Origin: Thermodesulfovibrionia bacterium
Lineage (GTDB): Bacteria; Nitrospirota; Thermodesulfovibrionia; UBA6902; BMS3Bbin08
Length of the DNA: 64,000 nucleotides
Direction of reading: 5' to 3'
Assembly: GCA_030694425.1 (NCBI GenBank)
Contig: JAUXYI010000010.1
Location: forward strand, 18,595 to 82,594
Below, one piece after another: positions 520 to 62,719 of this stretch; the first letter of the stretch is position 1; each line of letters opens with the position of its first letter. The position numbers and the translations under genes were made by a program. Below the pieces are notes generated by a model. That model did not search any database, was not told the DNA's origin, and saw nothing but the letters and a program-made list of their open reading frames with translations.

Positions 520-1835
520 ATAAATTTTATGAATACCTCGTTTGAAAGAAGAAGACCTTTTCTGGTTAACCTCATGTTATCTTCTCTCAATTCCAAAAGC
601 CCGGCTTCCTGAAGCTCTTTTATTTCTTTATGATAAACCGTCAATATATCACTGCCTTGGGTTTGATAAAAAGTTTTCAGGTTTATGCCTGTAGTCTTTC
701 TTAAGCCAAGAAAAATAGCTTCTGACATAGCCTTATCTTCAGTTATTTCCTCGGTTTCTTTAACAGGGCTCTTATCCGCTGAAATCAAATTTATGTAATC
801 ATCCAAAATAGCAGTATTATGAAACCTCTTCCTTTTTATAAAATAATGCGCCCCTAAGCCAACTCCATAATATTCTCCCCTATCCCAGTAATTCAGATTG
901 TGCCTGCAGAAATAATCAGGCAGTGCAAAATTGGATATTTCATAATGTACAAAGCCCTCGGATTCTAAATAATCTATTGCATAGTTATACATCTCAATAA
1001 TTTTTTCTTCTTTCAATGGTATTAGTTTGTGTTGTTCCTTGAATATCCTCCTTTGTCCTTTTCCGTCATTCCTGCGAAAGCAGGAATCCATGTCTTTCCC
1101 GCTTTGTTCTGGATTCCCGCCTACGCGGGAATGACAACTCCCACAGTTGTTATTCTTTGTGTTATTTGTGGCATAAGCATCCGCCTTCATATACTCATAA
1201 AGCAAAGTCCCCTTCTCCACAGTAAGTTCATAAGTAGAAATATGTTTTGGCTTTAAATTTACTGCCTTCTCAAGTGTTTTCTTCCAGCTTTCGATATTTT
1301 GTTCTGGGATGCCATATATAAGGTCTATTCCAATATTTTCAAAACCTGCATCCCTTGCAAGATAAACAGCCTGCTCTGCATCATGAGAGGAATGAAGCCT
1401 GCCGAGAAGATTAAGTTCATCGTCATTAAAAGATTGAACCCCTATACTAATTCTATTTATACCAGAAGAAAAGATCGCGGAAAGCTTTTCCTTACCGAGT
1501 GTCCCGGGGTTTGCTTCAATAGTCGCCTCATAATTTTTTACAAAGGATAATTGTTTAAAAATGCAGGTGATTAAATCAGACAAGGCATCAGCAGAGAGGA
1601 CAGTAGGTGTTCCTCCCCCTATATAAAGACTTGAGAACACCCTCCCCCTTACCCCCTCCCCTTGAGGGAGGGGGATGGGGGAGGGGTAATTTCCATAGGA
1701 GATATTGTGTATCTCTTTTTTTATCGCCTGAAGATAAGCCCCTTCTTTTTCAGGGTCATAAATACCGGATACAAAGTCGCAGTAGATACATCTCTTCAGA
1801 CAAAAAGGGATGTGGACATATAGAGAAAAAACCAT
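516..1835 (-). CDS. hemW: HemW/HemN-like radical SAM haem chaperone (oxygen-independent coproporphyrinogen oxidase family)
   Basis: The N-terminus MVFSLYVHIPFCLKRCIYCDF is the classic HemN/HemW radical SAM start, and the protein has a GGGTP motif. Two repeat-derived in-frame insertions are present. Confidence 0.8.
   Translation of the reverse strand: MVFSLYVHIPFCLKRCIYCDFVSGIYDPEKEGAYLQAIKKEIHNISYGNYPSPIPLPQGEGVRGRVFSSLYIGGGTPTVLSADALSDLITCIFKQLSFVKNYEATIEANPGTLGKEKLSAIFSSGINRISIGVQSFNDDELNLLGRLHSSHDAEQAVYLARDAGFENIGIDLIYGIPEQNIESWKKTLEKAVNLKPKHISTYELTVEKGTLLYEYMKADAYATNNTKNNNCGSCHSRVGGNPEQSGKDMDSCFRRNDGKGQRRIFKEQHKLIPLKEEKIIEMYNYAIDYLESEGFVHYEISNFALPDYFCRHNLNYWDRGEYYGVGLGAHYFIKRKRFHNTAILDDYINLISADKSPVKETEEITEDKAMSEAIFLGLRKTTGINLKTFYQTQGSDILTVYHKEIKELQEAGLLELREDNMRLTRKGLLLSNEVFIKFI
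1065..1135. repeat. GTCATTCC...GGAATGAC palindromic dispersed repeat, in-frame inside hemW
   Basis: gtcattcctgcgaaagcaggaatcca...tggattcccgcctacgcgggaatgac. The same architecture occurs at 2588, 8144 and 41461. Confidence 0.7.
1639..1690. repeat. GC-rich palindromic repeat (CCCCTCCCC...GGGGAGGGG family), in-frame inside hemW
   Basis: ccctcccccttaccccctccccttgagggagggggatgggggagggg. Related copies lie at 8231, 47673, 49432, 54125, 55391, 61001 and 62268. Confidence 0.7.
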
Positions 1836-1914
1836 AAATTATTTTAACAAACATTTTTCCAATTAGTAATTACTTTTTAAAAAAATCATGTATAGATGTG
1901 ATATAATCTGCTTG

Positions 1915-4102: not shown

Positions 4103-4204
4103 AGTGTTACCTTTCTAAAAAAAGTAACACTACTTTATCACCATATCAACATTTATGTCAAGTTAAAACAGCCTGTTGAACGGCCTGTTGAAAAAGTATT
4201 TTTG

Positions 4205-4364
4205 CCGTCTTTGCGAGCCCTTCGCTTCTGTCATTGCGAACGAAGTGAAGCAATCTCCTTATTCTTGCTCAGGGTAAACTCCGCGAAGCAATCTCGCAGT
4301 TAAAGAAATCAATGAGTTAGAGATTGCTTCGTCGTCCCGATGTTTCGGGACTCCTCGCAATGAC
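4205..4364. repeat. composite GTCATTGCGA...TCGCAATGAC dispersed repeat cluster
   Basis: Copies of tttgcgagcccttcgcttctgtcattgcgaacgaagtgaagcaatct and agattgcttcgtcgtcccgatgtttcgggactcctcgcaatgac. Its end overlaps the 3' end of the 4368-5321 gene. Confidence 0.7.
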
Positions 4365-4367
4365 ATT

Positions 4368-5788: not shown

Positions 5789-5807
5789 GTATCCTCCAAA
5801 AGAATGA

Positions 5808-5907
5808 ATCCGCAGATTACACAGATTTCACAGATTTTCTTAAGAGTGGACAGATTAACTTAAATTCACTCGATTCAATTTGCGTAATCTGCGAAATCTG
5901 TGGATAT
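5808..5907. repeat. inverted arrays of tandem CACAGAT(T) units in the leuD-leuC spacer
   Basis: atccgcagattacacagatttcacagatt ... aatttgcgtaatctgcgaaatctgtggat. The same family occurs at 40248-40324 and 33539-33570. Confidence 0.6.
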
Positions 5908-8143: not shown

Positions 8144-8258
8144 CTTCATTCCAGTAAAAACAGGAATCCAGTCATTTATTTCCCCTGGATTCCGCATCAA
8201 GTGCGGAATGACACAACACCTACAAAATCTCCCCCTCCCCTTTGCTAAAGAGGGAAGT
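8144..8258. repeat. composite repeat (CATTCC...GGAATGAC unit plus CCCCCTCCCCTTTGCTAAAGAGGGAAG unit)
   Basis: Direct reading of the sequence. Confidence 0.65.
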
Positions 8259-8427
8259 AATGAAAATTAGTTTTTAAAAAGATCTGAGTTTCCTATCTAA
8301 ATAGAATCACATTTTTCGTTATATGTTAAGGATTATCAAATAAACTTATAGATTCTATAAATATTTTAAATTTGCATAGTTGCGCAAATAGGTAAGGATT
8401 TAAGATAAGAAATCAGACAATGCAACT

Positions 8428-8466
8428 GAGATTGCTTCATCCCGATGATGTGGGATTCGCAATGAC
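8428..8466. repeat. AGATTGCTTC...TCGCAATGAC repeat unit
   Basis: gagattgcttcatcccgatgatgtgggattcgcaatgac. Confidence 0.65.
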
Positions 8467-9994: not shown

Positions 9995-10016
9995 ACACTC
10001 TCTTTCAGAGTTTAAA

Positions 10017-10095
10017 ATTGTTCAAGATTGTTTAATGTTGTTCAATATTGAACTATCTTGAACTACCTTAAACTATGTTGAACTTAATTTGTTAA
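10017..10095. promoter_or_regulatory. array of about 10-bp-phased TTGAACTAYC / TTGTTCAA repeats spanning the pssA stop and the leuA upstream region
   Basis: attgttcaagattgtttaatgttgttcaatattgaactatcttgaactaccttaaactatgttgaacttaa shows helical-turn periodicity. Confidence 0.4.
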
Positions 10096-10798: not shown

Positions 10799-10869
10799 AA
10801 AAAACAGTGATGCGTAATCAGTAACAAGTAACGGGAAAAGAATATATGCAGTCTTTAACTCGTCACCAG

Positions 10870-11505: not shown

Positions 11506-11606
11506 TATACCGGTAACAAGTAATACGTGATGAGTAAGGAGTTATAAGAGAAGATTTATTTTGGAAATAATAATTCATACTTGTCACTCGTCACTTGTTA
11601 CTGTTT

Positions 11607-12760
<1,154 letters not shown>

Positions 12761-12762
12761 TT

Positions 12763-13251: not shown

Positions 13252-13264
13252 CTTTCTCCTTCGG

Positions 13265-13355
13265 AAAATTCAAAAATTAAAATTTAAAATGCAAAATTAA
13301 GAAATTTATTATTAAATTTTTTTCTTCCATAATTTTGATTTTTGAGTTTTGCATT
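13265..13355. repeat. AT-rich AAAATGCAAAAT / GTTTTGCATTTT inverted-repeat element
   Basis: Lies between ilvB and ilvN. Confidence 0.6.
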
Positions 13356-13359
13356 TTCT

Positions 13360-15096
13360 TTATTTCACTGCTCTAACTTTTTTCTCTTCTTTTTTTTCTT
13401 CCTCAAACAGCATCTCATCTATTGAGGCACCTGCGGGAACCATAGGATAAACTTTCTCTCTCCAGTCAACAACAAAGTCCATAAACACGGGTTTGTCTTT
13501 TACCTTGAGCGCCTCTCTTAGAACAGGCTCTACCTCTTCAGGTTTTGTTGCCCTCAGTCCGACAGCATTGTATGCCTCTGCCACTTTCACAAAATCAGGC
13601 ACCACGTCAAGATAGGTGTGTGAATAACGCTCTCTGAAAAATAACTCCTGCCACTGTCTTACCATCCCCAGATAATGGTTATTAAGTATTGCAACCTTAA
13701 CCGGCAGTTTATTTATAACAGCAGTTGCAAGCTCCTGTATGTTCATCTGAATACTGCCGTCGCCAGCTATATCTATAACCAAATCATTAGGGCATGCAAA
13801 CTGTGCTCCGATTGCAGCAGGGAAACCAAACCCCATCGTGCCAAGACCGCCTGAAGACAGAAATCTCCTTGGTTTATCATATTTATAAAATTGCGCAGCC
13901 CACATCTGATTCTGCCCCACCTCTGTACAGATTATTGCATTGCCTTTTGTCAACTCGTATATCTTCTCAATAACAAATTCGGGTTTAATGATTTTTTCAT
14001 CATATCTGTACGTAAGGGGTCTTTCCTTTTTCCACTGCTCCATCTGCTTTAACCATGATTTCCTTATCGCACTCCACTGTTCTTTTCCAACTTCTTCCTT
14101 AAGAATTTTCAATATCTCCTTTAATACCAGCTTTACATCCCCGACTACAGGCACATCAACTCTTACGTTTTTTCTTATTGAGGTCGGGTCAATATCTATA
14201 TGAACTATTTTTGCATTAGGCGCAAAAGACGCTGTCTTTCCGGTCACGCGGTCGTCAAATCTCACACCAATGCCTATCAACAAGTCTGCATTCTGAACAG
14301 CCATGTTGGCATAATATGTCCCGTGCATGCCAAGCATTCCCAGAGATAAATTATGTGTTCCGGGGAATCCGCCAAGACCCATAAGCGTCATTGTTACGGG
14401 TATATCCATAAACTCTGCCAGTTCTTTAAGTTCTTTTGAAGCTCCGGATAGAATCACGCCGCCGCCTGCCATAATAACAGGTTTTTTAGCGCGTGCTATC
14501 TCATGCGCTGCCTGCTTTATCATCCATTTATTGCCTTCATAAGTCGGGTTATAGCTTCTTATTTGTATGTGCTGGGGCCATATAAAATCAGTTTTGCCTG
14601 CTGTTACATCCTTTGGTAAATCAATCAAAACAGGGCCTGGTCTGCCTGTTGATGCAATATAAAATGCTTCTCTCACTGTTTTGGCAAGGTCATTTATATC
14701 TTTAACAAGATAATTATATTTCGTACACGGCCTTGTTATTCCTACGATGTCAGCTTCCTGAAAGGCGTCATTGCCTATTAACATTGTCGGCACCTGTCCT
14801 GAAAACACAACAATTGGCACTGAATCCATTGAAGCATTGGCAATACCTGTAACAGTATTAGTTGCGCCGGGCCCTGATGTAACAATAGCCACGCCTACTT
14901 TTCCGCTTGCCCTCGCATAACCGTCTGCAGCATGTACAGCGCCCTGTTCATGTCTTGTAAGGATAAGTTTTATGTCTTTTTCATCATAGAGGGTGTCAAA
15001 AATATTGAGGACCACACCTCCGGGATAGCCAAAGATGTGCTTTACCCCCTCTCGCTTTAAACATTCAACTAATATTTCAGCGCCGCTTTTTTTCAT
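13360..15096 (-). CDS. ilvB: acetolactate synthase large subunit
   Basis: [27 protein letters not shown]... ThDP/FAD enzyme. The first 54 codons of the track ORF are repeat-derived ([10 protein letters not shown]), so the start is set at 15096. Confidence 0.9.
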
Positions 15097-15120
15097 CTGT
15101 TCTCCATTTCTTTGCAAGGT

Positions 15121-15184
15121 GTCATTCCGAGCGAAGCGAGCAATCTCATGGAGATTGCTTCGGTCATAACGACCTCGCAATGAC
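15121..15184. repeat. GTCATTCCGAGCGAAGCGAG...CTCGCAATGAC palindromic repeat
   Basis: Lies in the ilvD-ilvB gap. Confidence 0.7.
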
Positions 15185-15194
15185 AATACTATTT

Positions 15195-16850
15195 TCAAAT
15201 TTTCATTATAGCCCCTGTACTTGCTGATGTAGCAAAGGCAGCGTATCTGGCAAGCCATCCTGTATTAATCTTGGGCTTAGGAGGCTTCCATGATGCAAAC
15301 CTTTTCTTCATTTCCTGATTGCTAATAAATATATCTATTTTTCTTTTTGGAATATCTATGTTTATTATATCCCCGTTTTTCACAATGGCAATAGGTCCTC
15401 CTTCCATTGCCTCAGGAGATATATGTCCGATGCACAGCCCTCTTGTGCCGCCGGAGAAACGGCCGTCTGTAATCAATGCTACTGATTCACCCAGCCCCAT
15501 GCCCGCAATAGAAGCGGTTGCGTTCAACATCTCCCTCATGCCAGGGCCGCCTTTAGGCCCTTCATAACGTATAACTACAACATCGCCTGCCTTAATTTTG
15601 TCGGCAAGGATTGACTTCATCGCATCCTCCTCTGACTCAAACACCCTTGCCCTGCCTCTAATCGTTAACATCTTATTAGTTACAGCTGTTTGTTTTACCA
15701 CAGCTCCATCCGGAGCAAGATTGCCTTTTAAGACAGCTATACCGCCCTCTTTATGATATGCCTGGTTAAGCGGCCTTATCACTTCTGAATTAACAATATC
15801 AGCATTATCCGCTATATCATAAATTTTTTTGCCTGATACCGTCAGGGCATTATTAAGTTTTGGTTTTAATCTCTTCAGCACAGCAGGAATACCGCCTGCA
15901 TATTCAAGGTCCTCAAGGTAATCTGTTCCTCCGGGAAGCATGTTAGCAATATGAGGGGTATCCTTACTTATTCTATCAAACATCTCAAGAGACACGAATA
16001 TCCCCGCTTCATGGGCAATCGCAGGAATATGTAAAACAGTATTTGTAGAGCCGCCAAGAGCCATATCAACTCTTATGGCATTCTCAAATGCCTTTGGCGT
16101 TAAAATTTTTCTGGGAGTAATGTTTTTCTTTACAATCTCCACTATCCTTACTCCGCTGTGAAAAGCTATCCTGCGTTTTTTTGATGAAACAGCAAGAGAT
16201 GTTGCGCACTCCGGAAGACTCATGCCCAGCGCCTCGGTTACACAAGCCATTGTATTTGCCGTGTACATTCCCTGGCATGAACCCGGACCAGGACATGCAC
16301 ACACCTCAAGCTCTGCCATTTCTGCGTCGCTTAACAGCCCTTTCTTGTATTTCCCTATTGCCTCAAATGTATCGTTTACAAGGGAAAGTCTCCTGCCCCG
16401 GAGATTGCCGGCAAGCATAGGACCTGCAGTCACAACAATAGACGGCACATTTACCCTTGCTGCTGCCATAAGCATTCCAGGGGTAATCTTGTCGCAGTTC
16501 GTAAGAAGCACCAATCCGTCAAACTGATGCGCTTCAGCAATCGTTTCAACCATATCCGCTATGAGCTCCCTTGATGGCAGACTGTAATGCATTCCCCTAT
16601 GCCCCATTGCAATGCCGTCACAGATGCCGGGTATGCCAAAAAAAAACGGGTAGCCGCCGCCAGTATGAATCCCCTTTTCTATAAACCTTTCAAGGTCACG
16701 CATGCCGATATGCCCGGGAATAATATCAGTAAAACTTGTAGCAACTCCTATAAACGGCTTGTTCATCTCCGTGCGAGGCATTCCCGTGGCATACAGCAAT
16801 GCCCTGTGCGGCAATCTTTCTACACCTTTTTTAATTAAATCGCTTTTCAT
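15195..16850 (-). CDS. ilvD: dihydroxy-acid dehydratase
   Basis: 551 aa ILVD/EDD family protein, [24 protein letters not shown]. Confidence 0.9.
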
Positions 16851-16868: not shown

Positions 16869-16939
16869 GTCATTCCGAGTGAAGCGAGGAATCTCGTCTT
16901 TAAAGATTGCTTCTGCCGAAACTTCGGCATCGCAATGAC
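16869..16939. repeat. GTCATTCCGAGTGAAGCGAG...CATCGCAATGAC palindromic repeat
   Basis: Lies upstream of ilvD. Confidence 0.7.
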
Positions 16940-16975: not shown

Positions 16976-17203
16976 TTAACTTTTCACTTTTTGCCTGTAT
17001 TCCCTTATAAGCTCTGCCATACGGTCCTTCTTGAGCAGTTTTTGTTTCTGGAGCTTTTTTCTTTCTATTTCTTCTTCAGGGGTCAGATATTTATTTTTGT
17101 CCATCTCTGCAAGTATACGGTCAAGCTCTTTATGTCCTTCATGTAGTTTTTTATATTCTTCATTTTCCTTTTTTAAAATTTCTGCTATTTCAGAGTCTTT
17201 CAA
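16976..17203 (-). CDS. DUF465 (YdcH-like) small coiled-coil protein
   Basis: 75 aa, ...KLHEGHKELDRILAEMDKNKYLTPEEEIERKKLQKQKL... Confidence 0.6.
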   Translation of the reverse strand: MKDSEIAEILKKENEEYKKLHEGHKELDRILAEMDKNKYLTPEEEIERKKLQKQKLLKKDRMAELIREYRQKVKS

Positions 17204-17743
17204 TAATAGTCCCTCCTCTCTTTTTAACCCAAAATTCGTTAAAATTAAAATATTAAATTAAGTAGTTCTGGGAAATGTCTGCCTTATTTGGTTCAAAGGA
17301 GAAATTATCATATTTTCGCCAAAAAAACAAGTTTTTGTATAACTCATAAGCGGGAACAAGACAGACAGGTCAGGATTCAAAGGGTTTTAAAATGCTTTCA
17401 CCTAAGATGCCTGCCTATATGAAAGTCAAATGTAGATTTGCAAACATTGATTGCAGATTATGGCAAATTGGAAGGGGTCGTGAGGCAAAAAAAGCTAACA
17501 TTTTAATTTTCTGAAAAAATCTATTTTGCTATCTCATCTGCCCATAGCCAACGTTCTTTGACTTCTAATTGTCTTGAGAGTCTTTCTAAAAATTCTTCAC
17601 TTTTTTGATTAAAACCTGTTTCTACGATTTTCCACCACTTCTTACTTGAACCTTTTTCGGCAAAAAGATCAGTCATTGGATAAATATAAACTACAATGCC
17701 CTGAAGTTTCTTCTCTATCCAAACGGTAAAAGGGAATCTTTTA

Positions 17744-19156
17744 CTATCTTTTCCATAATAAAACTTTTAGCCCTGTGTAAAACAATATAAAATATTTCCT
17801 TAATGATAAACCTTGAAGCTTGAGAATTCTTCTTATTATGTAAGATGGTCTTAAATAAAATCTTTTATATGCTTTTCTTATACATTCTTTCAGTTCCTCT
17901 TGTGTTCTCCCATATGGAATATATGTAGGATAGTCATATAATGTAGCTTTATGTAACTCATCTTTGAGGATAGTCCCATATTGAGAGCATAATTTATAAA
18001 AGGCTTCTCCAGATATATGAGGTATTGTAAGGCTAATTTGAACATAATCAGATTCTATTTCTATAGCGAACTTAATGGTTTGTTCTGATTCCTCACGAGT
18101 TTCCCCTGGAAGTGCCAACATGTAAGAGCAGATAGTCTCTATTCCTGCTTCTTTAGCTAACTTTATAGAGATACGAGCTTGGTCTAATGTAATGCCCTTA
18201 TTAATTAAATTTAAAAGACGTTGTGAACCAGATTCTATCCCATAATAAATCTGATAACAACCAGCTTCTTTAAGTTTTCTAAGTATTTTCTCATCTACCA
18301 AATCTACACGTGTGAAACAAGACCAAGGAAGATTTAAATTCTCGGCATTAAGAAGATCACAGAATTCATATACCCATTTTTTATTTACTGTAAAAGAATC
18401 ATCCCAAAACCTTATACTGTCAGCACTATACTCTTCTTTTAGAATTCGCATCTCTTCAACAACTCGTTTTGGACTGTGATACCTGACGGTTCTCCCAAAA
18501 GACTGTTGGATCCAACAAAAAACACATTTAAAAGGACAACCTCTTGAGGCTATCATGCTTAATGTCCTTATACCTCTTAAATGAGAAGTAGCATGATATT
18601 TATTCATAGGGAAAAGATGTTTTGCAGGAAAAGGAAGGATATCCAAATTCTCTATGAAAGGTTGTGGTTTATTTTTAATTATATTCTTCCCATCTTTCCA
18701 GACAATACCTGGCACTCCTGAAAAATCAACCCCATTTTGTAGGCAATCTAAAAGGTTCTTCATTACAAATTCACCTTCACCATAAACACCAAAATCTATA
18801 CTTTCATCTCTAATTGTTTCTTCTGGATACATTGTAATATGAGAGCCACCTAATACCACTTTAATGTCTGGATTTATTCTTTTAGCAATTTTAGCTATCT
18901 TATAACAGGACTCTAAATTGCTGAAAATAGTTTGTTGCCCTACAATATGGGGAGAAAAATCTCTTGTTACTCTTTCAATATCATCAAAATTTGACTTGGT
19001 AACAACAGCATCTATTACCTTTACCTCATGTCCATCTTTTTCTAAAAAAGCGGCAACGTATGCTAATCCTAAAGGGAAATATGGCTGAATTGAGGTATTA
19101 AATTTTCCAAATCCTTCTTTCCATGAACTTGGAGGTACTACAAGCAAAACCCTCAT
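17744..19156 (-). CDS. B12-binding (class B) radical SAM enzyme, substrate unknown
   Basis: An N-terminal B12-binding domain (MRVLLVVPP...GLAYVAAFLEKDGHEVKVID) is followed by a radical SAM core with RGCPFKCVFC. The AAGGAG RBS favours a start at 19156. Confidence 0.75.
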   Translation of the reverse strand: MRVLLVVPPSSWKEGFGKFNTSIQPYFPLGLAYVAAFLEKDGHEVKVIDAVVTKSNFDDIERVTRDFSPHIVGQQTIFSNLESCYKIAKIAKRINPDIKVVLGGSHITMYPEETIRDESIDFGVYGEGEFVMKNLLDCLQNGVDFSGVPGIVWKDGKNIIKNKPQPFIENLDILPFPAKHLFPMNKYHATSHLRGIRTLSMIASRGCPFKCVFCWIQQSFGRTVRYHSPKRVVEEMRILKEEYSADSIRFWDDSFTVNKKWVYEFCDLLNAENLNLPWSCFTRVDLVDEKILRKLKEAGCYQIYYGIESGSQRLLNLINKGITLDQARISIKLAKEAGIETICSYMLALPGETREESEQTIKFAIEIESDYVQISLTIPHISGEAFYKLCSQYGTILKDELHKATLYDYPTYIPYGRTQEELKECIRKAYKRFYLRPSYIIRRILKLQGLSLRKYFILFYTGLKVLLWKR

Positions 19157-36077: not shown

Positions 36078-36135
36078 CTAATGTAAAAATTATCCCGAAT
36101 AGTCGGGATGCATTTTGCATTTTTATTTTTGAATT
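36078..36135. repeat. TATCCCGAATAGTCGGGATG palindrome plus ATTTTGCATTTTT unit
   Basis: Direct reading of the sequence. Confidence 0.55.
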
Positions 36136-40247: not shown

Positions 40248-40324
40248 ATCCGCAGATTTCACAGATTAAAATATCAATATATCTTTTTTAAAAATCTGTG
40301 TAAATCTGAGTAATCTGTGGATTG
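40248..40324. repeat. inverted arrays of tandem CACAGATT units
   Basis: atccgcagatttcacagatt...aaaatctgtgtaaatctgagtaatctgtggat. Confidence 0.6.
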
Positions 40325-40333
40325 ATTTAGTTT

Positions 40334-41460: not shown

Positions 41461-41520
41461 GTCATTGCGGCTTGTCCGCAATCCTTCTTTAAAAAAAGAT
41501 TCCCGACAAGCGGGAATGAC
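41461..41520. repeat. GTCATTGCGGCTTGTCCGCAATCC...GATTCCCGACAAGCGGGAATGAC palindromic repeat
   Basis: Direct reading of the sequence. Confidence 0.7.
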
Positions 41521-41568: not shown

Positions 41569-43587
41569 TTATGACTGCCTTAGTAATTTGTTATTAGGGG
41601 TATTTTGGGAATCTGCAAGAAAATCCCTTATATCATCTATTGCTGTAGTCATCCTGCATTCGGGAAGGGAATTCAAAAAATGCACTCCGTAACCCTTTGT
41701 CATAAGTCTTGAATCAAGGATTGCAATAATGCCCTTATCTGTTTTTGTTCTTATCAATCTTCCAAAGCCTTGTTTAAGCAGGATTGCTGCCTGAGGGACT
41801 TGATAATGTGAAAAGGGGTCTTTGTCTTCTCTTTGAAGCGCCTCCATCCTTGCCTCAGTAATTGGCGCATCAGGGACAGCAAATGGAAGTTTTGTTATTA
41901 TCACACATTGTAAATCATCTCCGGGAACATCAATGCCCTGCCAGAAAGTATATGTGCCAAACAGTGCAGAATTATTATCATTTTTAAATTTTTCAATCAA
42001 CCTGTAACTGTCTGCATCTCCCTGTTTATAGATTTTAACTCCTGCTACATCAACGGTATCATAAGCCTTGTTAAGAAGGCTGTAACTTGTGAAAAGCACA
42101 AGCGTCCTTCCCCTCATTATTTCAAGAATCTTTTTCAGCCTGTCAATCAATCTTTCTTCAAAATCTTTCGCCCTTGGCTCTGAGAGGTCATCGGCTATGT
42201 AAAGGATAGATTGCTCTTTATAATTAAAAGGAGACTCCAGAAGAAGTCCCTCTGCATCCTGTAACCCGAGACGCTCTTTTATATAATCAAAATTATTATT
42301 GATGGAAAGCGTTGCTGACGTAAGAATAGCAGAACTTAGATTATCAAAAACACCTGTTTTAAGTAATTTTGCTATTTCTATGGGCGTTGCTACAAACCTC
42401 AACATTTTTCCATCTTTCTCAGTCCAGTAGACATAACCTTCAAGTTCCTGCATTAATATTGTTTTCAGGGAATTCAAGAACTCTTCACATCTATTCATAA
42501 GGGCGATTATCCCTTTCTTTTCATCCTCATCACCTGATGCTTTATATACACCGCCAAGCTGATTAAATAGTTTTGATAGAGGCTCAGATATTGTATCCCC
42601 CGCAAATCCCTTTTCATGGATTCTCAATGTGGTTAAATTATTCAATCTCTGAGCAAGCTCCTGAAAGAATATATCGCCTTTTATCCGCACCATGTTTAAA
42701 AGTGCATTTGCCTCTGAGAAGTCGCTCTGAGAAAGCCATTTAAGCCTTATGAGCAAACCCTTGCCGTGCGTGCTCAGAATGGAATCAAGCAGATGTTTGA
42801 GTTTATAGTTGGATATTTCTACTCCGAGATAATCTGCTGCCACATCCTCAAGCTCGTGTGCCTCATCAAAGACCGTAATATCAAAATGCGGCAGAACCTG
42901 CCAGCCTGAAGCAATATGCGCAAAAAAGAGATGATGGTTTGTGACAAGGACATGAGCGCGCCTTTCATTTGCCTTTGCCTTTTGATAAAAACATCTATTA
43001 AAAAGTTTGCAGTCCTTGCCATAGCATAAATCGCCTTCTCTGCAAACCTTCTGCCAGAGACTTCCTCTTATATCAATCTCAGCCCTGATGCCTGTGTCGG
43101 TTCCCCTTATCCAATTTAGTAATGCATCTGTTTCACGAATCTCATCTATTTCAAAAAGTCCGTGGGTCTTTGTCTGTTCCAGTCTCCTCAGGCACACATA
43201 ATTCTCACTTCCGAGACAGAGTGCGAACCGCAGATTTTTAAAGATATTATCTCTTAAGAAAGGAAGTTCTTTTTCAATAAGCTGTCTCTGGAGCGCCTTT
43301 GTGTATGTTGATACAACTACCCTTTTACTGCTTGAACCACTTAAACTGTTTGTCCCGAAATATCGGGATGAACTATTTTCATCAAGCACCCATTCAATAA
43401 CAGGGACAAGATAGGCAAGGCTTTTGCCGACGCCTGTACCTGCCTCTACTATCAGGTGGTTTTTATTTCTCAGGGCTTTATCAATTGCCTCTGCCATTGC
43501 CTGCTGTTCAGGTCTTTGTTCATAGGCATGAAGCGTCTTGGAGAGGACACCGCTGATACCAAAAAAATTATTTAACATTTTCATCAC
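41569..43587 (-). CDS. dinG: DinG/Rad3-family ATP-dependent DNA helicase
   Basis: Walker A AGTGVGKSLAYL, a DEAH-like VFDEAHEL motif, and an FeS Cys cluster. Confidence 0.8.
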   Translation of the reverse strand: MMKMLNNFFGISGVLSKTLHAYEQRPEQQAMAEAIDKALRNKNHLIVEAGTGVGKSLAYLVPVIEWVLDENSSSRYFGTNSLSGSSSKRVVVSTYTKALQRQLIEKELPFLRDNIFKNLRFALCLGSENYVCLRRLEQTKTHGLFEIDEIRETDALLNWIRGTDTGIRAEIDIRGSLWQKVCREGDLCYGKDCKLFNRCFYQKAKANERRAHVLVTNHHLFFAHIASGWQVLPHFDITVFDEAHELEDVAADYLGVEISNYKLKHLLDSILSTHGKGLLIRLKWLSQSDFSEANALLNMVRIKGDIFFQELAQRLNNLTTLRIHEKGFAGDTISEPLSKLFNQLGGVYKASGDEDEKKGIIALMNRCEEFLNSLKTILMQELEGYVYWTEKDGKMLRFVATPIEIAKLLKTGVFDNLSSAILTSATLSINNNFDYIKERLGLQDAEGLLLESPFNYKEQSILYIADDLSEPRAKDFEERLIDRLKKILEIMRGRTLVLFTSYSLLNKAYDTVDVAGVKIYKQGDADSYRLIEKFKNDNNSALFGTYTFWQGIDVPGDDLQCVIITKLPFAVPDAPITEARMEALQREDKDPFSHYQVPQAAILLKQGFGRLIRTKTDKGIIAILDSRLMTKGYGVHFLNSLPECRMTTAIDDIRDFLADSQNTPNNKLLRQS

Positions 43588-44578: not shown

Positions 44579-44589
44579 ATGAGTTATGA

Positions 44590-44670
44590 GATTGCTTCAG
44601 CACCCCGTGCTTCGCAATGACAGTATTATGTTCGTCTATTTTGTCATTGCGAGCTAAGCGAAGCAATCTA
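44590..44670. repeat. AGATTGCTTCAGC...TTCGCAATGAC / GTCATTGCGAGCTAAGCGAAGCAATCT repeat pair
   Basis: Direct reading of the sequence. Confidence 0.7.
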
Positions 44671-46929: not shown

Positions 46930-47490
46930 TTATATCCTCTCATACACCCAGACCCTTCCGCCACCTTTTATTTCATCTATTCTTTTTACAAGCCTTTTCT
47001 TGTGAAGATTTAATAATCTTGTGCCACTTGTATTAGCCTCAAGCTTCATAATCTCTGATAATTCTTTAGCAGTAATTTTGCCTTTTTTTACAATAAGTTC
47101 CAGAGTTTCCTTAAGATAATTGTTTAAGTTGCCGAGAAGTATTTTCTTCCCATTTTTCATATCTGCTATGACAGCTAAATCCTTCCTCTCCAGAGCTACT
47201 TCTATGTTCTCTTTTTGGTTGTCATTAAGACCCGCAAGAATGATGTATTTGTCTCCGTACTCGTTGCTCAATAAACGGGATATAAGTTTTGCCACAATCT
47301 CATCGGCACAGGAATAATCAATTATTCCTATCTTAGAGAAATCAAGGGCAATAACCTCTCCATCTTTTTCTTTCTCAATATCTCTCTTAATCCGCTCCCG
47401 TATCACCTGACCCGATTGTCTCGTAACAAGGTCGGATGAACCATTCTTGAGTTCTTCTTTAAGGAGTTTATAGAGATTATAAGTTTGCAT
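46930..47490 (-). CDS. STAS-like (DUF4325-like) plus C-terminal wHTH protein, last gene of a three-gene overlapping operon
   Basis: ...VIALDFSKIGIIDYSCADEIVAKL... followed by a C-terminal helix-turn-helix. It overlaps the MTase gene by 14 nt. Confidence 0.4.
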   Translation of the reverse strand: MQTYNLYKLLKEELKNGSSDLVTRQSGQVIRERIKRDIEKEKDGEVIALDFSKIGIIDYSCADEIVAKLISRLLSNEYGDKYIILAGLNDNQKENIEVALERKDLAVIADMKNGKKILLGNLNNYLKETLELIVKKGKITAKELSEIMKLEANTSGTRLLNLHKKRLVKRIDEIKGGGRVWVYERI

Positions 47491-48505
47491 AACTTTCTTT
47501 TAAATCTGAATTGTCTATCTTTGAACCGAATTTCAATTTCTTCGGGTCAATCTTTTTATCAAATTTAACAGGGTCTTTAAAGACATATGGCAGATTGAGG
47601 ATTTCTTTCTTAAAATCAATATCCTTCTTCTTCTGAATAATAATTTCAATTTTATTCGGATTATTATCTAAAAATCCCCCTGCATCCCCCTTTTTAGCAA
47701 AAGGGGGCAAGGGGGGATTTTTCTCACCATTTATTAGCTTCTCTTTAATTATTGGCAAGAAGTCCTTGTTGGTTTCATATCCGATAAAGTCCCTTCTGAG
47801 ATTTCTTGCAGCAAGGCATGTTGTGCCGCTCCCAAGGAATGGGTCAAGAACTGTATCTCCTACGAAACTGAACATTTTAATTAATCTTTTTGGTAATTCT
47901 TCTGGAAACATTGCAAGGTGTTTGTCCTGTTTTTCACCAGAGAAATTCCAGTGTCCATAAAAATATTCGTTCCATTCTTCAGTAGTAAGTTTAGATTTTT
48001 CTTTTATCTCTCGACTTACTTTCGGTGGATCACCGAGCTTCTTGAATATCAGAATAAACTCATAATCGAATTTGATGATTCCATTCCTTGGATACGGGAA
48101 AGACCCCATAATTGTAGCTCCGCCTGTTGTATTACATGTCGTAACCTTTTGCCAGATAATCGCTCCCATATAATCAAATCCAATTGTTTCACAGAATTTT
48201 ATTATTTCTTCTCTAATTGGAATAATTTTGTATCTTCCGTAATAAACAGACCTTGCGAACTGGTCTCCAATGTTTATGCATAAACGACAGCCGTTATGTA
48301 ATACGCGGTAGCACTCTTTCCATACAAGGTTCAGATTATTTATGTAATCCTCGTAACTGTCATTAAACCCTATCTGGCTTCCATTGCCATAGTCTTTCAA
48401 TTGCCAGTAAGGAGGTGAGGTGATGATGAGATGAACGCTTTCATCTTTTAGTTCATCCATCCTCCTGCTGTCGCCAATGATTATGTTTGTTTTAGGGTTT
48501 ATCAT
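47477..48505 (-). CDS. beta-class DNA methyltransferase (N4-C/N6-A, SPPY then DPFLGSGTT)
   Basis: Motif IV IITSPPYW precedes motif I LDPFLGSGTTCLAA. An in-frame GC-palindrome repeat insertion lies near the 3' end. Confidence 0.8.
   Translation of the reverse strand: MINPKTNIIIGDSRRMDELKDESVHLIITSPPYWQLKDYGNGSQIGFNDSYEDYINNLNLVWKECYRVLHNGCRLCINIGDQFARSVYYGRYKIIPIREEIIKFCETIGFDYMGAIIWQKVTTCNTTGGATIMGSFPYPRNGIIKFDYEFILIFKKLGDPPKVSREIKEKSKLTTEEWNEYFYGHWNFSGEKQDKHLAMFPEELPKRLIKMFSFVGDTVLDPFLGSGTTCLAARNLRRDFIGYETNKDFLPIIKEKLINGEKNPPLPPFAKKGDAGGFLDNNPNKIEIIIQKKKDIDFKKEILNLPYVFKDPVKFDKKIDPKKLKFGSKIDNSDLKESYANL
47673..47722. repeat. GC-rich palindromic repeat in-frame inside the MTase gene
   Basis: aaatccccctgcatccccctttttagcaaaagggggcaaggggggattt encodes PPLPPFAKKGDAGGF. 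Confidence 0.65.
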
Positions 48506-49349: not shown

Positions 49350-49431
49350 ACTTCCTCCTTCTTACCTTTCCTTCCTCACTCCCTTAAACGGCTCATTAGC
49401 CGTCTACTGGTCAATGAATCTCATTTAAAAA

Positions 49432-49520
49432 TCTCCCCACCCCCCTCTTTGTCAAAGAGGGAATGATTCCCGACAAGCGGGAATAACATCCTAAGCGCAG
49501 GCTAAAGCCTGCGGCTACCC
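49432..49520. repeat. composite repeat (CCCCACCCCCCTCTTTGTCAAAGAGGGAATG plus GATTCCCGACAAGCGGGAATAAC plus GCGCAGGCTAAAGCCTGCGGC hairpin)
   Basis: Direct reading of the sequence. Confidence 0.65.
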
Positions 49521-54124: not shown

Positions 54125-54175
54125 TACCCCTCACCCTAACCCTCTCCCGCAAGGGGAGAGGGGAATGGATGACAC
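54125..54175. repeat. GC-rich palindrome CCCCTCACCCTAACCCTCTCCCGCAAGGGGAGAGGGGAATGG
   Basis: Direct reading of the sequence. Confidence 0.65.
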
Positions 54176-55390: not shown

Positions 55391-55485
55391 CCCCTCACCC
55401 TGACCCTCTCCTCTACGAGCCATGGCCGCAAGGGGAGAGGGGACTTGCTTATTCTCCCATCCCTTGATGTGAGGGGATGAAGGGG
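55391..55485. repeat. GC-rich palindrome (CCCCTCACCCTGACCCTCTCCTCTACGAGCCATGGCCGCAAGGGGAGAGGGG) plus GAGGGGATGAAGGGGATGG
   Basis: Direct reading of the sequence. Confidence 0.65.
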
Positions 55486-55502
55486 ATGGTGTTAATTTCA
55501 AG

Positions 55503-56439: not shown

Positions 56440-56469
56440 AACCAGCCCTTCATTAGTGTTTAAAGTTAG

Positions 56470-56575
56470 AGATTGCTTCGCTTCGCTCGCAATGACACAT
56501 TAGATGATAGCGTAACTTTCTTGTCATTGCGAGGAGTCGCGTAATATCGGGATGACGTGGCAATCTCATTGGTAA
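56470..56575. repeat. composite AGATTGCTTCGCTTCGCTCGCAATGAC ... GTCATTGCGAGGAGTCGCG...GCAATCTCATTGG repeat
   Basis: Direct reading of the sequence. Confidence 0.7.
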
Positions 56576-57838: not shown

Positions 57839-57840
57839 AA

Positions 57841-57917
57841 AAATTCAAAATGCAAAGTTCAAAATGCACAATTGAGGAATTCCATAATTTTGATTTTTAA
57901 TTTTTAATTTTTGCATT
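57841..57917. repeat. AT-rich CAAAATGCAAAGTTCAAAATGCAC...TTTGATTTTTAATTTTTGCATTT inverted-repeat element
   Basis: Direct reading of the sequence. Confidence 0.6.
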
Positions 57918-57921
57918 TATT

Positions 57922-60118: not shown

Positions 60119-60166
60119 AAATAAAGTTGAAAAGTAAACCTTTATTATTATTTATGCCTTTAACTC

Positions 60167-62719
60167 TCAATAAATCGAGAGACCGTTTATTGCTCTGTAC
60201 TGCCAGTAGCTCCTCATCACCCTTTTTACATAGTTCCTTGTCTCCTGATATGGTATATCCTCGATAAACTCTTCTATGTCCTTATGTTTGGAGCTAAGCA
60301 GCCACTTCCTTATCGTACCCTCTCCTGCATTATAAGATGCAATGGCTAAAGGTAAAATACCGAATTCTTTTACAAGCTGCGAAAAATAATGTGTGCCTAT
60401 TGATATATTTTTTTTGACATTATAAATCTCTGAATCATTTTTCAGCTCTATTTTTAATTCTTTTTTAAATTCATGCGCAGTAAAAGGCATAAGCTGCATA
60501 AGTCCGATTGCTCCTGCCTGAGAAAGCGCATCAGGCTCAAACCGGCTTTCTTCCCTGATTAATGCAACGATAAGGTACGGGTCAATGCCTTCTCTTTCAG
60601 AAGCCTGCTTCACAATATTCCAGAAACCAAGTGGATATGCAAGCGGAAGCACTTCTTTACTTGCCAGACCTTCTACAGAATAAATTACACTTCTATATTC
60701 ATCCAATTCAAACGCAATCTGTCCGAGATATTTTAATTCTTCAAGACTCTTTGCAAACCTGATAGCTGTCCTTATTTCATCTACTGCCTCTTTATTCATC
60801 TCTAAAGATTTAAGCGCCTCTATCATTTCATATACTTGACCTTCAGGCGCTTTAGGTTTTGGGAATTCAATTTTATTAATTGTGTTATCTTCCTTAAGAT
60901 GCCTCTTTGCAAGAAAACCATAATAGCCTGCGTCTTTTAAAAGTCTGTGATACATGACAGAAGTATCTGCATCAGAGCAGGCATTATTCCCACCTGATAA
61001 TCCCCCCTTCCCCCCTTTGTCAAAGGGGGGTGAGGGGGGATTATTTTTGTTGTCCTTTGCATTAATATGTAACATGTTTGTCTCATCTTCTGTGTTTAAA
61101 CCTGCCTTTTGCTCCATACAGGCTTTAGATAGCATTTCACGACTCTTTGCTTCCCAGTAAAGATATCTGCCATTACCTTTTAAAGACATAAGTTTAGAGA
61201 AAATTTTTTCTGATTCCTTATAATTTCCATTAGTATAACTTATCCAACCAATGCCCCAGAGCGCATCTTCAGCTTCTTCTGGAAAATCATTTGAAACTTT
61301 TTTAAAGATTTCCTCTGCTTCGTTTAAATTTCCCATCCTCCTCTTCCCGTCACCAAGTAAAAGAAGAAGCCTGGCAAGGTATTGATTGCCCGGATATTCT
61401 TTTTCAAGTCTTTTTATAATGCCCTCGAAACCTCTTGTATCATCAACCCTGTAAACAGCCCGCGCCCTCCAGTACATTGCCTCAGGAGTTTTGACAAGTT
61501 CAAAAGTTTTAGCTGCCTCGCTATATTTTTTCTGTTTGAACTGGCATGTGCCGATTGAAAATCTGATTTTATCCTTAAGCACAGAATCTTTTATAGATTT
61601 AAGAATCTTTTTAAAAGCAGTTTCTGCACTCTCAAAACTGCCATTTTTTAATAGATTCTCAGCCCTCTTCAAAGTTTCTTCCAATGTAAATTTAGCGGCG
61701 TTGATGCCTTCCAGTTCTTTTAGTGCATCTGCTGAAAAAGGACTTGCACTGATATAAACCTCATTAAGAAGGCTAATTGCTTTATCTCTTCCTGTTTTTT
61801 TAAGAAGCTGCGCTAAAAGCAACTTATAATTCCACTCTGCCGGATATCCTTTAATATATTGATAAAGCATCGTTACAGCAGTTTCTTCGTCTTTTAATGC
61901 AAGCAACGAGGCAATTTCAGATTGTTTTGCTCCCTGTATCAGAGTCTTATGCTGAATCTGCCTGGTGGTTTCCACGGCTTTATTGAATTCTCCCTTGGCA
62001 AAATAAGTATCAGCAAGCAATTTCAAGGCATAATCTCTTAGTAAATAGCTGTTAACAGAAGCCTTCTTAAAACAATCCTCTGCCTTATCAAAAAAACCCT
62101 GTTCTTTGTAGAGCCTGCCGAGCAAAAAATATACCTTGTCCAGATAGATGTCATGCGCTACAAAACTTAAAAGAACATTTTCCGCTTCCTTATAAGACCT
62201 TATATCAATAAGATGAAGGGCATTTTTAAATTGTTTGTCTAATTCAGATGAAAATACATCGTTCACCATCCCCCTCGCCCCCTCTCCCGATATCTCGGGA
62301 AGGGGGATGGGGGAGGGGTAATTTTCACCTGAAAATACTCCTAACTTGTCATTGCGAGCCCCTTCGCTTCTGTCATTCTGAGCGTTAGCGAAGAATCTCG
62401 CCTTATCGCTCAGGGCAGGCTCCGGCGTGGCAATCTTGTCTTTAGAGATTGCGGAGCCTGCCCCGAGCGTGCCTTGAGATTGCTTCGAGACTTCGTCTCT
62501 CGCAATGACAGGCAAAGGGGTCTCGCTCCTCGCAATGACATTTTCATAGTCCTTTGCGTCTCTTTGAGATATGAGTGTTTCTCTTTGTAATTCATTTGAG
62601 GAAAATTCAGGAGAACTACTGGAATTTGAAAAAGTGTATGTCAATGGATAGATAAGGGTAAAAAAGAAAAATGCTAAGAATTGAATAAAGATTTGGAATT
62701 TCCTACATTCTATACGCAC
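60167..62719 (-). CDS. TPR-repeat soluble lytic transglycosylase (Slt-like) with repeat-derived in-frame insertions
   Basis: C-terminal SLT domain (ESRFEPDALSQAGAIGLMQLMP) and multiple TPRs. The N-terminal hydrophobic signal/anchor at 62719 is separated from the TPR body by about 90 codons encoded by the 62268-62540 repeat cluster. A second insertion at 61001-61042 encodes PPSPPFDKGGKGG. An alternative start lies at 62260. Confidence 0.7.
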   Translation of the reverse strand: MRIECRKFQIFIQFLAFFFFTLIYPLTYTFSNSSSSPEFSSNELQRETLISQRDAKDYENVIARSETPLPVIARDEVSKQSQGTLGAGSAISKDKIATPEPALSDKARFFANAQNDRSEGARNDKLGVFSGENYPSPIPLPEISGEGARGMVNDVFSSELDKQFKNALHLIDIRSYKEAENVLLSFVAHDIYLDKVYFLLGRLYKEQGFFDKAEDCFKKASVNSYLLRDYALKLLADTYFAKGEFNKAVETTRQIQHKTLIQGAKQSEIASLLALKDEETAVTMLYQYIKGYPAEWNYKLLLAQLLKKTGRDKAISLLNEVYISASPFSADALKELEGINAAKFTLEETLKRAENLLKNGSFESAETAFKKILKSIKDSVLKDKIRFSIGTCQFKQKKYSEAAKTFELVKTPEAMYWRARAVYRVDDTRGFEGIIKRLEKEYPGNQYLARLLLLLGDGKRRMGNLNEAEEIFKKVSNDFPEEAEDALWGIGWISYTNGNYKESEKIFSKLMSLKGNGRYLYWEAKSREMLSKACMEQKAGLNTEDETNMLHINAKDNKNNPPSPPFDKGGKGGLSGGNNACSDADTSVMYHRLLKDAGYYGFLAKRHLKEDNTINKIEFPKPKAPEGQVYEMIEALKSLEMNKEAVDEIRTAIRFAKSLEELKYLGQIAFELDEYRSVIYSVEGLASKEVLPLAYPLGFWNIVKQASEREGIDPYLIVALIREESRFEPDALSQAGAIGLMQLMPFTAHEFKKELKIELKNDSEIYNVKKNISIGTHYFSQLVKEFGILPLAIASYNAGEGTIRKWLLSSKHKDIEEFIEDIPYQETRNYVKRVMRSYWQYRAINGLSIY
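61001..61042. repeat. GC-rich palindrome TCCCCCCTTCCCCCCTTTGTCAAAGGGGGGTGAGGGGGGA, in-frame inside slt
   Basis: Direct reading of the sequence. Confidence 0.7.
62268..62540. repeat. large composite repeat cluster (GC palindrome plus at least four GTCATTGCGAG/CTCGCAATGAC-type units) in-frame within the slt 5' region
   Basis: Direct reading of the sequence. Confidence 0.7.

Follow-up and report, generated by a model that had tools for sequence, protein, structure and literature searches.

What are the short palindromic repeats that are scattered over a 64-kb stretch of an uncultured Nitrospirota genome, and how did some of them come to lie in frame inside its genes? The stretch analysed (hereafter the window) belongs to a metagenome-assembled genome (MAG) of Thermodesulfovibrionia, has a G+C content of around 38%, and carries nearly all of its genes on the minus strand. 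Its gene content was established by a Pfam scan of all open reading frames (ORFs) of at least 100 residues and of plausible smaller ones. We consider it likely that the repeats are hairpin-forming, non-autonomous elements of the repetitive extragenic palindromic (REP) or REPIN type, which would be mobilised in trans and whose genic copies would be filtered by reading frame, stop codons and structural tolerance. The evidence behind this reading is that the same repeat signature occurs between and within genes, that close orthologues lack the genic copies, and that these copies sit in loops.

A hand-curated census gave 38 palindromic elements, covering 2,765 nt or 4.3% of the window, in line with the more than 35 copies counted in a first-pass annotation of this DNA. 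All the motifs named there were recovered at their positions and are enriched over 100 dinucleotide-preserving shuffles of the window. The motif GTCATT[GC][CT] occurs 31 times (7.6 expected), GCAATCTC 19 times (2.7 expected), paired C5/G5 runs 12 times (0.6 expected), and perfect 8-bp GC-rich hairpins 13 times (1.3 expected), while no TCCCGA-N-TCGGGA hairpin (8 copies) or TCTACGAsTCGTAGA sequence (3 copies) was expected. The statement that elements occupy nearly every intergenic gap was exaggerated: they are present in ~24 of the ~46 gaps longer than 40 nt, about half. Folded as single-stranded DNA (ssDNA), elements of the families designated A, B and E below and those built of GTTCAAGAT units form a single long hairpin (z = -3.4 to -5.6); the AT-rich elements (z = -1.4 to -3.4) and the longest A3 dimer (z = -2.8) fold less strongly. 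Target-site duplications were found at none of the elements, the flanking direct repeats being inconsistent and no longer than 4 nt. This makes the elements REP/REPIN-like rather than classical MITEs (miniature transposable elements with inverted repeats), despite their inverted termini; the earlier description of small, mobile, in-frame elements stands without the MITE label.

Two other identities were discarded. A terminator scan showed no surplus of sites (16, with 15.5 expected), which rules the elements out as canonical intrinsic terminators, and on inspection the regularly spaced direct repeats of a CRISPR array are absent. A scan of the window at Rfam gathering thresholds matched tRNA-Pro alone and no family for the elements.

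The families first listed are made of real motifs, but their boundaries needed redrawing. The GTCATTGCGAG and GTCATTCC motifs are subtypes of one superfamily, our family A, in which a GTCATT tag precedes a hairpin. Subtype A1 reads GTCATTCC(C/T)GC-loop-GC(G/A)GGAATCC, A2 reads GTCATT(G/C)C(G/C)GCTTGTC...AATC, and A3, the most frequent, reads GTCATT(G/C)(C/T)GAG-variable inner hairpin-CGAAGCAATCTC (GTCATTGCGAG...GCAATCTC). The tag of all curated units is (T/C)GTC-ATT, with one CGTC and TGTC in most. Stems of A1 and A2 are 7-8 bp long (ATT...AAT) with loops of 4-6 nt, and that of A3 is a 5-bp ATTGC/GCAAT helix followed by a bulge and a variable inner hairpin. The A1 tail is ...GGAATCCA; in the A3 tail (...GCAATCTC) the C after the palindrome is present and the rest differs from the CCA consensus. 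Units are combined into head-to-head dimers of 60-100 nt or composites of 155-193 nt at eight of the 14 loci, are placed tail-to-tail at two and stand singly at four. A hairpin search with a strict stem misses the GCGAG subtype and catches chance GTCATA matches.

The GC palindromes (family B) fall into at least three subfamilies: B1 (AATC6-N-C6TTTGTCAAAG6-N-G6ATT), B2 (TTAC-CCCTCCCCCATCCCCCT..., ~90-110 nt in its full form with outer arms), and B3 (CCCTCACCCTAACCCTCTCCC...GGGGAGAGGGG), all of them G/C-run palindromes. A 16-nt hairpin, TCCCGA-N4-TCGGGA, occurs alone or nested in the loops of A2, A3 and B2 copies. Families D and E are inverted repeats in which a unit of 7-9 nt, AAAATGC in the AT-rich D and a 9-nt unit of the CACAGATT/CACAGATTN type in E, stands two or three times in tandem in each arm; what had been described as tandem CACAGATT arrays are thus present, with their tandem 9-nt units forming the arms of inverted repeats. 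Family C (TCTACGAGTCGTAGA, three copies) is a palindrome with 7-nt arms and one central base. Such a loop is too short for a full-length hairpin, and the sequence suggests a protein-binding site more than a hairpin repeat. Family F comprises the two weakly similar ATAGGGGCYT copies already noted, which share only ~35 nt.

The decisive observations concern the copies in coding sequence. Translations and orthologue alignments confirmed every in-frame copy reported earlier in hemW, a DNA methylase and a transglycosylase. Those in hemW are:

516-1835, minus strand: hemW, radical-SAM heme chaperone with two in-frame inserts (Pfam Radical_SAM and HemN_C).
1639-1690: insert 1, B2 G/C-run palindrome, in frame, peptide YPSPIPLPQGEGVRGRV; fold z = -4.0.
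1065-1135: insert 2, A1 head-to-head dimer of NTS-like GTCATTCC hairpins in a linker, in frame (CHSRVGGNP...DSCFRRND); fold z = -4.5.

The hemW product matches a Thermodesulfovibrionia MAG protein at 100%, and most of the orthologues in an alignment of 32 sequences have gaps where the two inserts lie. At insert 1, the window is 48 nt longer than both L001, the contig that encodes a 93% identical protein (P0003), and L002 (the contig of P0006); L002 lacks both inserts, with flanks ~95% identical to the window at the DNA level. In the AlphaFold model (mean pLDDT 76.9), insert 1 forms a coil between helix 28-46 and strand 66-73, and insert 2 falls in a region of 50 residues (219-268) with pLDDT below 50 between helices 211-224 and 276-292. 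Internal inserts of at least eight residues are carried by 63 of 120 hemW orthologues, the minimal form of 372-380 residues being in the majority. They cluster at about six hot spots, after residues ~43-56 (12 orthologues), 99-100 (11), 126 (2), 222 (47), 333 (2) and 420 (12), all of which are junctions, loops or turns in the model, and a single site can hold one repeat family in one lineage and a second family in another.

The methylase and the transglycosylase provide further filled and empty sites:

47477-48505, minus strand: N4/N6 DNA methyltransferase with one insert (Pfam N6_N4_Mtase).
47670-47722: B1 palindrome in a methylase linker, in frame, peptide NPPLPPFAKKGDAGGF.
60167-62719, minus strand: lytic transglycosylase with TPR and SLT domains (Pfam) and three inserts.
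60997-61044: B1 palindrome, in frame, peptide NNPPSPPFDKGGKGG; fold z = -5.6.
62243-62333: B2 element with outer arms, an inverted repeat, in frame, peptide ENYPSPIPLPEISGEGARGMV; absent from contig L126, present in L127.
62348-62540: A3 composite cluster of 193 nt, in frame, between the signal anchor and the TPR body.

The methylase insert follows FLPVIKEKL and is absent from five homologues that are 82-88% identical (P0201, P0222, P0252, P0254 and P0256), including that of the cultured Dissulfurispira thermophila. In other homologues this point is taken by a GTCATT dimer (VIPACRESFLKKDAGQAGMT) or by a B1 palindrome (NPPSPPFSKGG.GGF). Apart from the insert, the methylase ends in ...KIDNSDLKESYANL and lacks the C-terminal SNase (thermonuclease) domain present in nearly all homologues; the ORF that follows it (46930-47490) encodes an unrelated DUF4325 protein.

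In the protein alignment, the NNPPSPPFDKGGKGG insert of the transglycosylase is confined to the window and P0121, a protein 86% identical that lacks the whole N-terminal cluster. Three states of the N-terminal site were found: L126, encoding an 86% identical protein, is empty, L127 has the B2 element only, and the window has B2 together with a 219-nt A3 cluster. Elements have accumulated at this site stepwise. The intragenic cluster (62336-62545 in this comparison) aligns over its full length with an intergenic composite at 4200-4367, whose modules follow the same order as those at 62348-62540.

One more genic copy had been overlooked:

43353-43368: TCCCGATATTTCGGGA hairpin in a gene for a DinG-like helicase (ORF 41569-43587), peptide DENSSSRYFGTNSLSG.

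It lies in a segment that adds 14-16 residues (DENSSSRYFGTNSLSG) to the protein behind the Walker A region. These residues are absent from nine homologues with 44-57% identity over the N-terminal region, and from this alignment they are probably a seventh in-frame insert.

Inserts are thus missing from close relatives of hemW, the methylase and the transglycosylase, and the same peptides were not found in relatives lacking the repeat signature. Judged from these comparisons, the genic segments in the three genes are insertions. The first-pass annotation had proposed frame-preserving lengths or tolerant loops, and both fit: the inserts lie in low-confidence coils and linkers, and only families with open frames are genic. 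Coding sequence of the window holds only A and B elements, in which 3-4 of the six frames are open, and never the stop-rich families D and E. In other phyla, six of 100 A3 copies lie in long ORFs, which cover 65% of the sequence. This depletion, together with the restriction of genic copies to open frames, is what would be expected if insertion is random or biased towards loops and a purifying filter then acts on it.

The repeats extend to relatives and far beyond. Copies of A, B1 and B2 are also present, in different places, in a syntenic JGI contig (L124) and in a Nitrospirae MAG (L123); the Dissulfurispira region examined is nearly free of elements. In L123, the ferrochelatase gene (17071-18210) contains an in-frame B2 element and a second palindrome, and takes its last residues and stop codon from an A1 GTCATTCC unit (…NVIPAEAGIQ*); in HemY of the same MAG (18294-18600), a B1 insert directly follows the GxGxxG motif. 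The A3 subtype was found in at least 120 stretches, from assemblies titled with ~25 phylum-level groups among the matches listed (one genome per species); the listed matches in a viral collection include viral contigs with A3 units as well. B1 occurs in other Nitrospirota loci and in 60 stretches of viral contigs (L328-L387; 34-69% G+C), where 40 of 62 copies lie inside ORFs of at least 150 residues encoding portal-like, Mu-F-like, DUF1018-like and TraR-like proteins. No recurrent gene family beside these viral copies qualified as a candidate enzyme, the recurrent ones being the phage structural genes that host B1. B2 is rare elsewhere.

The ilv operon of L124 can be compared spacer by spacer with that of the window (L124 1424-1543, 2033-2189 and 3204-3283 against 13252-13359, 12675-12762 and 11506-11606, respectively). 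The ilvB-ilvN and ilvC-psd spacers of L124 contain inverted arrays of tandem units with the architecture seen in the window and a different unit, GTGTCAGTG, and in its ilvN-ilvC spacer an A2 dimer takes the place of the window's C and D elements. Position and shape are kept, and the sequence family is replaced.

What might move these elements is best approached through family A. REPs tagged with CGTC or TGTC include Neisseria dRS3 and Rickettsia RPE-4 and RPE-6; the survey that defined them reported intragenic copies adding 20-80 residues, found no dedicated transposase, and stated explicitly that repeats of the CGTC type do not flank tyrosine transposase genes (PMC3733652). In Neisseria, the NTS hairpin is bound by SsnA, a 94-residue GIY-YIG nuclease that cuts adjacent ssDNA and whose gene is typically flanked by the repeat, and the NTS-SsnA pair modulates transformation (PMC11893778). 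Judged by its tag, AT-first stem, tail and head-to-head dimers, family A belongs to the CGTC/TGTC-tagged superfamily, members of which have also been called NTS or Ssn-related motifs (SRMs). One unit (1109-1136, minus strand; TGTCATTCCCGCGTAGGCGGGAATCCAG) is a single base off the Neisseria NTS consensus, and it is the only match in the window to the published SRM pattern HGTCWYN(0-2)YYVSBRHN(0-5)WNVSBRGN(0-2)RNCYNB, for which 0.1 matches were expected.

The A3 subtype leads to a nuclease of the same kind. Three of the 120 genome loci among the matches listed (L020, L087 and L050; Planctomycetota, Bacteroidota and Omnitrophota) have an ORF of ~95 residues encoding a GIY-YIG protein bracketed by GTCATTGCGAG units. 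Among metagenomic relatives of these proteins, a GTCATT unit lies within 200 nt of the gene in 77 of 80 cases and on both sides in 60; 197 of the 266 flanking units start with GTCATTGCGAG, and the density of GTCATT units reaches 8.3 per kb in the gene flanks compared to 0.74 per kb elsewhere. This flanking indicates that the A3 hairpin is the cognate repeat of one GIY-YIG subfamily. The nuclease matches Pfam GIY-YIG with an E-value of ~1e-17 and, weakly, UPF0213 proteins in the PDB, and its catalytic spacing Y9/Y20/E67 parallels the mutated residues Y6/Y17/E64 of SsnA. A GIY-YIG nuclease is more likely to be the cognate enzyme of the main family than the tyrosine transposase suggested earlier. 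When the 80 metagenomic loci were screened with lineage-specific repeats and tblastx, no convincing ssn locus of a Thermodesulfovibrionia-like kind emerged.

Taken together, these data are consistent with the following scheme. A Thermodesulfovibrionia genome would have been colonised by several families of short, non-autonomous, hairpin-forming repeats, the GTCATT hairpins being the presumed recognition sites of small single-domain GIY-YIG ssDNA nucleases, whose genes they flank in other genomes. We infer that such a nuclease, encoded elsewhere in this genome, may mobilise the GTCATT elements in trans, and that another enzyme may serve the remaining families; this step is drawn from association, and the published enzyme cuts but is not known to paste. 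New copies would arise at a low rate, mostly in intergenic spacers, and tend to land beside or inside existing elements. A genic copy would survive only if it alters the net length by a multiple of three, can be read through without a stop and lies in a surface loop or a linker between domains; it would then be translated as an extra Pro/Gly-rich or Arg/Ser/Asp-rich loop and persist as a neutral passenger of the protein.

Several observations weigh against this scheme. Ssn nucleases have been shown to cut, not to transpose (PMC11893778), and neither a GIY-YIG nuclease, nor a tyrosine transposase of the RAYT (REP-associated tyrosine transposase) or Y1_Tnp type, nor any other transposase was found among the ORFs of the 64-kb window by the Pfam scan. 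The G/C-run and AT-rich families have no candidate enzyme, and the SRM pattern fits only one of ~25 family A units, missing the GCGAG and CTTGTC subtypes. B2 is read in one frame (YPSPIPLPQGEG.RGRV) in at least four contexts, namely two hemW sites, the transglycosylase and the ferrochelatase of the related MAG, although four of its six frames are open, which a purely neutral filter does not predict. Finally, hemW linkers can be more alike than the proteins that carry them: 93% identical between P0001 and P0007 against 73% elsewhere, and 96% between P0004 and P0008 against 80% elsewhere (alignment columns 400-500). Some of the apparent polymorphism may hence be due to homologous recombination and not to fresh insertion; such shared alleles suggest, as far as alignments can tell, either a recombinational exchange of linker cassettes or repeated insertion of the same composite.

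Of the alternatives, the one that fares best, though we think it rather doubtful, is that the repeats mainly serve the host, as controls of incoming ssDNA in transformation, mRNA stabilisers, processing sites or protein-binding sites, and that the genic copies are collateral. The NTS-SsnA pair affects transformation in Neisseria (PMC11893778), many elements lie in short operon spacers such as those of ilv and leu, the corresponding spacers of L124 show the same architecture built from another unit sequence, and the family C palindrome, with 7-nt arms and one copy directly upstream of the HU ribosome-binding site, suggests a putative protein-binding site. However, terminator-like sites are not in excess and no Rfam family matches, presence or absence between close relatives and nesting resemble selfish spread, and the genic copies are left unexplained. 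Host roles of intergenic copies are in any case compatible with trans-mobilised repeats.

It is unlikely that a REP-associated tyrosine (IS200/IS605-like) transposase, and not a GIY-YIG nuclease, moves all or part of the families as REPINs, the G/C-run palindromes in particular. The dimer-of-hairpins architecture and the lack of target-site duplications would fit. B2 is preceded by TTAC (...AATTAC, then CCCTCCCCC), and TTAC is the cleavage tetranucleotide of IS608. The GGGGAGAG sequence of B3 also fits the GGGGWSAS motif of inverted repeats found beside some tyrosine transposase genes (PMC3733652). Yet the hairpin families have no GTAG tag, a Y1 gene is missing from the scanned ORFs of the window, repeats of the CGTC type do not flank tyrosine transposase genes in the published survey, and the GCGAG subtype flanks GIY-YIG genes instead. 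For the B families, the TTAC next to B2 and GGGGAGAG in B3 hint at a possible RAYT-type mechanism.

A bolder reading, to which we give little credence, turns the passenger status of the inserts around. The GTCATTGCGAG hairpin and its GIY-YIG partner would form an active, pan-bacterial, phage-borne system whose spread is driven by the ssDNA-specific nuclease and not by a transposase. With the G/C-run palindromes, which always give peptides like PPxPPFxKGGxGG or PSPIPLP..GEGxRG, it would continually remodel surface loops at preferred sites, including the apical loops of earlier inserts. If this were true, the inserts would be a general, overlooked source of loop innovation and not merely tolerated junk.

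It is very improbable that the segments are an ancient linker lost in some lineages, or palindromes that slippage or template switching produced locally. Linkers at the hot spots do vary intrinsically, and next to hemW insert 1 the filled alleles differ in sequence from the empty ones, but the same sequences of 50-190 nt recur at unrelated intergenic and genic sites, the minimal hemW is the majority form, and orthologues 86-93% identical lack the inserts. Misjoining of repeats into genes, conceivable in a MAG since repeats are known to confuse assemblers, is hardly credible given intact reading frames and the same in-frame inserts in independently assembled ENA, JGI, NCBI and Logan contigs (encoding P0002, P0003, P0007-P0010, P0121 and P0122); both of these last readings are effectively excluded.

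The repeats are set in a region of housekeeping and regulatory genes, including hemW, the leu and ilv operons, psd, pssA, truA, a ComM-like gene, surE, the HU gene, the DinG-like helicase gene, rmuC, restriction-modification genes, lolCD, lysS, zapAB, the transglycosylase gene and several toxin-antitoxin-like pairs. The elements outside the genes described above are:

2588-2655: A2 dimer (GTCATT..CTTGTC..) with a nested TCCCGA hairpin at 2605-2620, intergenic.
4210-4364: A3 composite (partial unit, unit, central repeat, unit with nested hairpin), intergenic.
5806-5905: E, inverted repeat with arms of tandem CACAGATTN units, leuC-leuD spacer; fold z = -3.4.
8146-8212: A1 dimer, intergenic.
8222-8254: B1-type half palindrome, intergenic.
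8418-8466, minus strand: single A3 unit in which a TCCCGA-like hairpin is nested, just downstream of leuA.
10006-10084: GTTCAAGAT-unit inverted repeat, intergenic.
10799-10869 and 11506-11606: GTAACAAGT/GTGACGAGT-unit inverted repeats, intergenic.
12635-12762: D AT-rich array (AAAATGC units) with C palindrome TCTACGAGTCGTAGA at 12683-12697, ilvN-ilvC spacer.
13265-13357: D AT-rich inverted array, ilvB-ilvN spacer.
15121-15184: A3 dimer, ilvD-ilvB spacer, within the longest ilvB ORF.
16869-16939: A3 dimer, 18 nt upstream of the ilvD start; fold z = -5.1.
27117-27165, plus strand: A3 single unit with a partial partner, intergenic.
28478-28580: A3 dimer with a central segment, intergenic.
30344-30410, plus strand: F, 60-nt imperfect palindrome (ATAGGGGCCT...); fold z = -3.0; second copy at 31179-31240.
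30487-30504: C palindrome, copy 2.
33540-33680: E-like inverted array of CACAGATAA units.
34183-34330: D-type AT-rich inverted array with TCCCGAATAGTCGGGA hairpin.
36093-36122: TCCCGAATAGTCGGGA hairpin with ATTTTGCATTT.
37514-37608: D AT-rich inverted array with TCCCGA hairpin; fold z = -3.4.
39317-39420: D AT-rich inverted array with TCCCGA hairpin, adjoining tRNA-Pro.
40065-40081: C palindrome TCTACGAGTCGTAGA, copy 3, adjoining on its upstream side the ribosome-binding site of the HU gene (39775-40053).
40250-40330: E, inverted CACAGATT array.
41461-41520: A2 dimer, intergenic; fold z = -4.4.
44587-44670: A3 pair, tail-to-tail, intergenic.
49430-49487: B1 half palindrome abutting an A2 single unit, intergenic.
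54128-54165: B3, CCCTCACCCTAACCCTCTCCC-GCAA-GGGGAGAGGGG.
55391-55497: B3 copy with an adjoining B2-like palindrome, intergenic.
56469-56567: A3 pair, tail-to-tail, intergenic.
57840-57921: D AT-rich inverted array.

The repeats of GTTCAAGAT and GTAACAAGT/GTGACGAGT units represent two further families with D/E-like architecture (arms of tandem 9-nt units) that had escaped the first reading. The dimer at 15121-15184 lies upstream of the real ilvB start and is therefore intergenic: the longest ilvB ORF (13360-15258) has a spurious N-terminal extension of 54 residues that runs through this dimer, and the real start is MKKSGAEIL. The C copy at 40065-40081 may be an operator of the HU gene. The two F copies point the same way and enclose a DUF433/DUF5615 toxin-antitoxin-like gene pair (30518-31115), with which they may form a small mobile cassette. 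Two tandem paralogous genes for PilZ-domain proteins (33032-33343 and 33706-34017) share 73% identity over 264 nt, and a third PilZ gene is located at 27293-27619.

Elements of this kind are already known, as tagged REPs and SRMs and as coding palindromes like the RPEs (Rickettsia palindromic elements). New are the host lineage, the density, the hot spots common to several families, and a widespread GCGAG subtype that falls outside the published pattern yet tracks a GIY-YIG subfamily. The G/C-run and tandem-unit families are apparently undescribed: no published description of the B, D and E sequences, as DNA or peptide, was found in the literature, and the 20 best-ranked of 496 literature matches contained no paper on REP-type repeats in Nitrospirota. 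Selfish DNA in coding genes, known from Rickettsia and similar reduced intracellular genomes, is thereby shown for uncultured, free-living Nitrospirota as well, where its density is high. The natural filled and empty sites are evidence for the mobility of Ssn-type hairpin repeats and bear on roles of Ssn beyond Neisseria transformation, and the published SRM search pattern overlooks a very widespread subtype. For annotation, the consequences are N-terminal extensions that are not real, proteins that appear too long and hypothetical ORFs consisting of repeat peptides; phylogenies built on alignments of MAG proteins are also affected.

Among known systems, the CGTC/TGTC REPs share with family A the unpaired (C/T)GTC tag, the A-T-first stem, a CCA-like tail, the prevalence of head-to-head dimers and occasional genic copies adding 20-80 residues; the stems of 7-8 bp and loops of 4-6 nt in A1 and A2 come near their stem of 8-9 bp and loop of 4-5 nt. 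In contrast, in the commonest window subtype (GTCATTGCGAG-variable hairpin-CGAAGCAATCTC) a short outer stem and a bulge precede a variable inner hairpin; this subtype builds composites of 100-190 nt and resides in Nitrospirota, a host not mentioned in that survey (Di Nocera et al. 2013, PMC3733652). With the NTS/SRM-SsnA system (Chenal et al. 2025, PMC11893778) our repeats have in common a unit one base off NTS, a distribution over many phyla, and, in other genomes, GCGAG-type units on both sides of genes for single-domain GIY-YIG proteins of ~95 residues. They differ in that the published pattern misses ~24 of 25 window units and no ssn gene lies in the window, and a text search of that paper turned up neither in-frame genic copies nor insertion polymorphism.

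Inverted hairpin dimers as the replicating unit, the lack of target-site duplications and a mostly intergenic location are shared with REPIN-RAYT systems (Bertels and Rainey 2011, PMC3116915); the window families have neither the GTAG tag nor a RAYT gene, and the cognate of the main family appears to be a GIY-YIG nuclease. The Rickettsia palindromic elements (Ogata et al. 2000 and 2002, cited via PMC10969869) are likewise in-frame palindromic repeats in unrelated housekeeping genes, translated as extra peptides compatible with the fold and present as several families per genome. The window repeats are linked to them through RPE-4 and RPE-6, which the literature places in CGTC families (PMC3733652). 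RPE-1-type elements measure ~100-150 bp, whereas those of the window are mostly 50-100 bp, belong to a free-living anaerobe and not to a reduced intracellular genome, and include several unrelated families occupying the same loop in different lineages. Coxiella QMITE1 and QMITE2 (Wachter et al. 2018, PMC5896051) are also small repeats that overlap or extend annotated ORFs, but they are 150-400 bp long, have terminal direct repeats and lie mostly at gene termini, in contrast to the internal loops occupied here.

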